DNA of 203 nt from Escherichia coli. Its GTDB lineage: Bacteria; Pseudomonadota; Gammaproteobacteria; Enterobacterales; Enterobacteriaceae. Position numbers and translations under genes: made by a program. Positions 1 through 132 of this stretch are shown here, piece by piece; the first letter of the stretch is position 1; every line of letters starts with the position of its first letter. The notes beneath the pieces are model-generated. The model was not told where the DNA came from. It saw nothing but the letters and a program-made list of their open reading frames with translations, and did no database searches. The DNA is taken from assembly GCF_003334335.1 (NCBI RefSeq), contig NZ_QOWQ01000246.1. One strand, written 5' to 3'.

Positions 1-132
1 GACAGGGTTTCCCCGTCTCAGTGGGCGGCAATAGGCGTGCTGGGGAGTCTGCTGTTTGGGCTGCTGACATATCTGACGAACCTGTATTTCAAAATTAAAG
101 AAGACCGGCGTAAGGCGGCCCGGGGAGAGTAG
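1..132 (+). CDS. essQ: Phage holin, class II (phage 21 S / S21 pinholin family), 3' portion with stop codon; 5' end lies upstream of the window
   Basis: Frame 1 is open from base 1 to TAG at 130-132 and translates to [43 protein letters not shown]. This closely matches my recollection of the phage 21 S holin C-terminus (...[26 protein letters not shown](R/K)[10 protein letters not shown]) and the E. coli K-12 prophage holins EssD/EssQ. It has the expected architecture: a hydrophobic Gly/Ala/Ser-rich helix ([23 protein letters not shown]) followed by a short charged tail. I chose essQ over essD only because the downstream gene is not an endolysin, as in the Qin arrangement; essD-like is equally defensible from this fragment. 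Confidence 0.85.
22..90 (+). other. Region encoding the second transmembrane helix (TMD2) of the pinholin, with small-residue (G/A/S) spacing typical of a glycine-zipper-like helix packing face
   Basis: The translated segment [23 protein letters not shown] is 23 uninterrupted hydrophobic/small residues, with G/A/S at roughly i, i+4 spacing ([11 protein letters not shown]). It is followed immediately by the charged tail [13 protein letters not shown]. In S21-type pinholins TMD2 is the pore-lining helix (established knowledge); the exact boundaries here are estimated by eye. Confidence 0.6.
122..129 (+). promoter_or_regulatory. Shine-Dalgarno / ribosome-binding site for the downstream ORF, embedded in the last codons of the holin gene
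   Basis: GGGGAGAG at 122-129 has a GGAG core at 124-127, giving 8 nt to the ATG at 136 (6 nt if measured from GGAGAG, 124-129). The purine-rich run overlaps the holin codons R-G-E and sits just before the stop, an arrangement typical of translational coupling. Confidence 0.6.

Follow-up and report, generated by a model that had tools for sequence, protein, structure and literature searches.

Identification of the reading frame

The first 132 bases of a 203-base stretch of Escherichia coli DNA (contig NZ_QOWQ01000246.1 of assembly GCF_003334335.1; the whole stretch is called the window below) encode the C-terminal end of a protein resembling S21, the S pinholin of phage 21. The question raised by this locus is whether its departures from S21 make it an unusual holin variant, or whether it belongs to an allele that is already familiar. 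From sequence comparison, we assign bases 1–132 with a probability of about 0.9 to the 3′ end of a standard 933W-type class II pinholin S gene, carried by a lambdoid phage or prophage resembling the Shiga toxin (Stx) phages.

Two records match the window DNA at every one of its 203 bases (100% identity), namely the E. coli NCTC9112 chromosome and the genome of Escherichia phage PhiR5_1. In NCTC9112 the full S gene lies at 4917–5132 of the examined stretch (L001) and encodes 71 residues, and PhiR5_1 encodes the same protein. This full-length product is identical to S of the Stx2 phage 933W (NP_049504.1). In NCTC9112 it is RefSeq WP_000284506.1, annotated as a ‘class II holin family protein’. 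It matches Pfam PF04971, ‘Bacteriophage P21 holin S’ (i-Evalue 8e-33; residues 5–67 against positions 1–63 of the 64-position model), as well as the PHROG holin families phrog_9876 (1.8e-40) and phrog_20 (2.4e-34). With 71 amino acids, two hydrophobic segments (8–28 and 36–57) and a basic C-terminal tail, it has the make-up of a class II holin. A search of NCBIfam gave no model matching the holin or the adjoining DUF1327 protein at E-values up to 0.001, and PADLOC gave no match for either protein. A sequence search of the PDB returned no relative with a solved structure, the best E-value being 0.35, for unrelated proteins.

The original prediction described a close but non-identical relative of S21, with differences of the kind normally seen among E. 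coli prophage holins. This description holds, as identity over the window part is 88% to S21, 93% to EssQ and 91% to EssD. It also raised the possibility of identity to a well-characterised allele such as K-12 EssD or EssQ. For those two we rejected identity (39/43 and 40/43 residues of the window part, respectively); an identical well-known allele was found in 933W S, over the full length, which leaves nothing variant-specific. Within the window the DNA differs from 933W S at three nucleotides, all synonymous and including the stop codon (TAG versus TAA).

The protein is also widespread. By tblastn, 104 phage records hold a protein at least 99% identical, among them Stx1- and Stx2-converting phages (O157:H7 Sakai-type) and Shigella Stx phages. 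More than 100 phage records besides 933W have the identical protein, and at least 1000 contigs carry its exact sequence. Of 5426 complete E. coli genomes, 2330 contain DNA similar to bases 1–132, and a single genome can hold as many as nine copies. In the Q-to-S region of Stx2a phages, most S proteins are 933W S or one residue off, and they are P21 holin S family pinholins (PMC10462455). The allele is thus ordinary, very common and already known, and its identification has already been published. It has little value as a discovery, because among Stx-converting phages and related lambdoid phages it is the standard holin allele. Its practical relevance lies in the lysis cassette, which sets the lysis timing of the host and hence the release of Shiga toxin and phage in Shiga toxin-producing E. 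coli.

The window contains one long plus-strand open reading frame (frame 1, bases 1–132, 43 codons followed by TAG). Its features are given below, with the basis of each assignment in brackets; TMD denotes a transmembrane domain.

1–129, plus strand: codons 29–71 of the 71-codon holin gene (translation; full gene from the two 100%-identical loci; Pfam and PHROG)
1–21, plus strand: inter-TMD loop, D29–Q35, DRVSPSQ (alignment of 13 alleles)
22–87, plus strand: TMD2, W36–Y57, the hole-forming helix of S21-type pinholins (hydropathy and position-by-position comparison)
88–129, plus strand: charged cytoplasmic C-terminal tail of 14 residues, six basic and three acidic (direct reading)
122–129, plus strand: Shine-Dalgarno-like GGGGAGAG within the last holin codons, 6 nt 5′ of the next ATG (sequence)
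130–132, plus strand: stop codon (TAG) that ends the holin gene (sequence)
136–203, plus strand: first 22 codons of a DUF1327/YdfR-family gene, MNKQYELVVKGINNYPDKITVT (translation; annotation in both 100%-matching loci)

Comparison with S21 and other alleles

Aligned without gaps, the full protein shares 55 of 71 residues with S21 (UniProt HOLIN_BPP21; 77.5%) and the window part 38 of 43. Five of the 16 substitutions fall in the window: Q30R (nucleotides 4–6), V46L (52–54), L47F (55–57), F49L (61–63) and R61K (97–99). Both proteins have 71 amino acids, a two-TMD layout and the Pfam PF04971 domain, and their tails differ only at R61K, which leaves the net charge of the tail unchanged. The S21 sequence on which the original prediction relied was correct; it agrees in full (100% identity) with the gene annotated as antiholin (S21-71)/holin class II (S21-68) in Escherichia phage 21 (OL657228.1). 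The four differences listed from it (V46L, L47F, F49L and R61K) are all real, with the R-to-K change at residue 61 and not 60. Q30R was missing from that list because the quoted S21 fragment began at GSL.

To place these differences within the family, residue states were tallied over 13 aligned full-length phage and prophage alleles. F47 and L49 are present in 11 of the 13 and K61 in 10, while the combination L47/F49 is limited to S21 plus one close relative. Most of these alleles thus carry F47, L49 and K61, so that of the four ‘substitutions’ quoted, three are peculiarities or polymorphisms of S21. L46 is confined to three Stx-clade sequences (the 933W type, Stx2-86 and H-19B). R30 is specific to the 933W-type and Stx2-86 alleles, the residue being Q in S21 and K in most others. 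Within this alignment, only L46 and R30 among the window differences mark the Stx-phage clade, and S21, the laboratory model, is an atypical sequence at positions 27, 30, 47 and 49.

The other named alleles fit the same picture. EssQ (Qin) and EssD (DLP12) belong to the same family, have the same length and are identical at 57 and 58 of 71 positions, respectively. Both carry F47, L49 and K61 as the window does; the window differs from them by K30R, T32S and V46L, and from EssD additionally by K64R. S of the Stx1 phage H-19B, a TCDB P21 holin S family member, is identical at 64 of 71 positions and belongs to the same Stx clade (L46, F47 and L49), but differs by K30, V37, R61 and V68. Nine other alleles were compared at the DNA level, and their stop codon is TAA, as in 933W, S21, EssD and EssQ, with the exception of the window-identical PhiR5_1.

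Could the five window substitutions nevertheless be adaptive, retuning lysis timing and making this allele a functionally distinct timing variant? The triggering time of holins is allele-specific (PMC9636201), and the restriction of L46 and R30 to the Stx-phage clade within the 13-allele sample would fit such a role. The majority states F47, L49 and K61, however, are no innovations of the window allele, all changes are conservative, and the mean Kyte-Doolittle hydropathy of TMD2 is 1.42 as against 1.44 for S21. Moreover, the C-terminally truncated module S21-56 still forms pores (preprint 10.1101/2021.04.20.440580), suggesting that the tail tolerates change. We regard an adaptive retuning as possible but doubtful. 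The differences are conservative and mostly represent the common family state, which speaks for a standard allele and against a special variant.

Compared with S21, the 44 window codons show 37 nucleotide differences, by which 26 codons are changed synonymously and five non-synonymously. On this codon comparison, the holin frame is under strong purifying selection and is not a chance reading frame. Two other open reading frames of 24–25 codons, at 21–98 on the plus strand and 18–92 on the minus strand, overlap the conserved holin frame, are unsupported and were rejected.

Pinholin features and partner endolysin

Both transmembrane domains and the partner endolysin were compared with those of S21. 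TMD1 (residues 8–28, TTGVSYTTSAVGTGYWFLQLL) is encoded 5′ of the window. It consists of 52% G/A/S/T with a mean Kyte-Doolittle value of 0.53, the figures for S21 being 57% and 0.33. On composition TMD1 is like a signal-anchor-release (SAR) domain, as is typical of a pinholin. The original prediction had pointed to the region upstream of the window for a SAR-type TMD1 and a dual-start motif; the SAR-like TMD1 and two in-frame ATG codons are indeed there, while the long product lacks the extra positive charge (see below). In TMD2 the small and polar residues G40, G43, S44, G48, T51, T54 and N55 are all identical to those of S21 (7/7), and the substitutions fall at L46, F47 and L49. These seven conserved residues reportedly take part in helix packing and lumen lining (Pang et al. 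2009).

The lysozyme gene of the same cassette (L001 6091–6624) encodes a product that is identical to 933W R at 168 of 177 positions (95%). Its N-terminus is MNAKIKYGLSAAVLALIAAGASAP, where the 19-mer of highest hydrophobicity has 53% G/A/S/T, and the N-terminal segment YGLSAAVLALIAAGASAP is of the SAR type, as expected for the partner of a pinholin. 933W R itself is listed as a SAR endolysin (PMC9239132). The partner endolysin of S21 is of another sequence type, as the cassette endolysin shares only 53 of 179 positions with R21.

These features also bear on whether S could be a canonical large-hole holin instead of a pinholin. We found no point in support of such a function. The 77.5% identity to S21 takes in the entire polar and small-residue face of TMD2, TMD1 is SAR-like, and the close match of the partner endolysin to 933W R extends to a SAR-type N-terminus. 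In the literature, S proteins of Stx phages are counted among the P21-family pinholins, with SAR endolysins as their partners (PMC10462455, PMC8136144). A large-hole holin is therefore extremely improbable.

For S21, the pinholin S21-68 builds up in the inner membrane and makes roughly 10^3 heptameric channels of some 2 nm there at a time that depends on the allele, whereupon the proton-motive force breaks down and membrane-tethered SAR endolysins are freed and activated (PMC9636201). S21-68 does not complement a lambda S-null phage with the cytoplasmic endolysin R (PMC9636201). TMD2 of S21-68 is necessary and sufficient for pores, while the N-terminus times activation (preprint 10.1101/2021.04.20.440580). 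By homology with S21, we infer a similar course for the window S. The 71/68-residue protein would be inserted in the inner membrane by its two TMDs. The weakly hydrophobic, Gly/Ala/Ser/Thr-rich TMD1 would exit the bilayer and free TMD2, which would then oligomerise into many small heptameric pinholes. At a set time these would collapse the proton-motive force, and this collapse would release R, a SAR endolysin tethered to the membrane whose gene lies about 1 kb downstream, and R would degrade the cell wall. The Rz/Rz1 spanins would complete lysis.

Start region and the antiholin question

The start of the gene lies outside the window. A dual-start motif, ATG TAC CAG ATG (M-Y-Q-M), is present at L001 4917–4928, 84 nt upstream of where the window begins. 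The two in-frame ATGs at codons 1 and 4 could give products of 71 and 68 amino acids, and each is preceded by a plausible Shine-Dalgarno sequence (GGGAG 7 nt 5′ of the first ATG and GGGG 10 nt 5′ of the second).

In S21, an extra positively charged N-terminal residue, Lys2, is credited with making S21-71 an antiholin (PMC9636201). S21, EssD and EssQ all start with M-K-S-M, with Lys-Ser between the Met codons, and Klebsiella relatives start with M-Y-R-M. The window-type long form, in contrast, carries Tyr-Gln between Met1 and Met4 and thus neither Lys nor Arg, so that its regulation may differ from that of S21. H-19B reads ATA-CAT-CAG-ATG; because ATA replaces the first ATG, this phage is limited to the 68-residue product. 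A literature search on the dual start in Stx phages gave nothing relevant. The missing charge bears on regulation and not on membership of the holin family. Because S21 is atypical at several positions and the start of the Stx clade lacks the antiholin Lys, results obtained with S21 should be carried over to Stx phages with some care.

One could go further and propose that the 933W-clade pinholin is timed unlike S21, the charge-based dual-start antiholin being absent, and that the DUF1327/YdfR protein encoded next to S is an unrecognised lysis-timing factor. We consider this proposal speculative and quite unlikely.

Genomic context and integrity of the lysis cassette

In both matching records, the window lies within a lambdoid phage late region with the same gene order: a SASA-family esterase (nanS-p-like), DUF1378, DUF826, S, DUF1327/YdfR, lysozyme R, an Rz-type spanin and terminase. 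As in 933W, a nanS-p-like SASA esterase gene stands upstream of S. No stx genes were found in the examined stretch of either NCTC9112 or PhiR5_1. The NCTC9112 prophage carries three tRNA genes, a TerB-family gene and a DUF3927 gene (L001 698–1710) where Stx phages carry stx. It also shows the late-region layout of Stx phages, with one tRNA-Ile and two tRNA-Arg genes, the nanS-p-like esterase, DUF1378, DUF826 and S.

Several points weigh against the assignment to a standard 933W-type pinholin. The DUF1327 gene adjoining S in NCTC9112 is annotated as an incomplete pseudogene, and for this reason the NCTC9112 copy may sit in a decaying prophage. The long form of S is without the Lys or Arg expected of an S21-71-type antiholin. 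In the literature searched, we found no experimental study of S of the 933W type itself, and pinhole size, heptamer stoichiometry and TMD1 release would have to be extrapolated from S21.

The first of these points leads to another explanation, namely that the S gene, although intact, has become a relic within a prophage that is cryptic or defective, as with essD and essQ in K-12, and no longer has a lysis role in the present host. Besides the NCTC9112 pseudogene, the number of similar holin ends, up to nine in one E. coli genome, is in its favour, as many of them must lie in defective prophages. However, the same 203 bases are present in PhiR5_1, whose record is a complete phage genome, names E. 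coli C as the host and contains the full S-DUF1327-R-Rz cassette. In addition, the holin frame is intact and the family is strongly enriched in synonymous over non-synonymous change. A relic is in our view unlikely, and we retain the reading of a standard pinholin gene of a lambdoid phage or prophage.

The DUF1327/YdfR gene and the S-R junction

The DUF1327/YdfR gene begins at window position 136, 3 nt after the holin stop codon. In PhiR5_1 it extends over L002 5136–5771, and its 211-residue product matches Pfam PF07041 DUF1327 (E = 1.8e-39) and is homologous to K-12 YdfR. The position of GGGGAGAG at 122–129 suggests that it is the likely ribosome-binding site of this gene and that its translation is coupled to that of S. 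Literature searches on DUF1327 together with holin and on PhiR5_1 gave nothing relevant.

A DUF1327 gene stands between S and R in Qin, H-19B, Stx2-86, mEp460, NCTC9112 and PhiR5_1; the S-ydfR-R order of Qin and the S-DUF1327-R arrangement of H-19B are thus the same as in the window. By contrast, 933W, phage 21 and DLP12 lack the gene and have R directly after S, and the DNA homology between 933W and the window ends at the holin stop codon. A mosaic joint can be seen at this codon, with TAG-ACG-ATG (DUF1327) in the window (130–135) and TAA-GCTG-ATG (R) in 933W (L006 4044–4051). The C-terminal part of the DUF1327 protein is highly variable, the product having 103, 211 or 268 amino acids depending on the phage and the gene being a pseudogene in NCTC9112. 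Between S and R, a minus-strand open reading frame (L002 5719–5979) overlaps the DUF1327 gene at its 3′ end; the PhiR5_1 record labels this frame ‘DUF1823 containing’, whereas the NCTC9112 record calls it hypothetical.

Other observations

An Rfam scan of the window gave no match at E-values up to 1, and a promoter and terminator scan found no promoter. The latter scan picked out an antisense terminator-like hairpin on the minus strand (121..102), with six pairs followed by a T-rich tail. One such site was seen where 0.2 were expected in shuffled sequences. As the hairpin lies inside the holin coding sequence and on the wrong strand, it is probably due to chance.

Among the related loci, the S21-family holin gene of mEp460_ev081 (L010 1501–1716, LR597641.1) is labelled ‘Phage tail fiber protein’, an evident misannotation.
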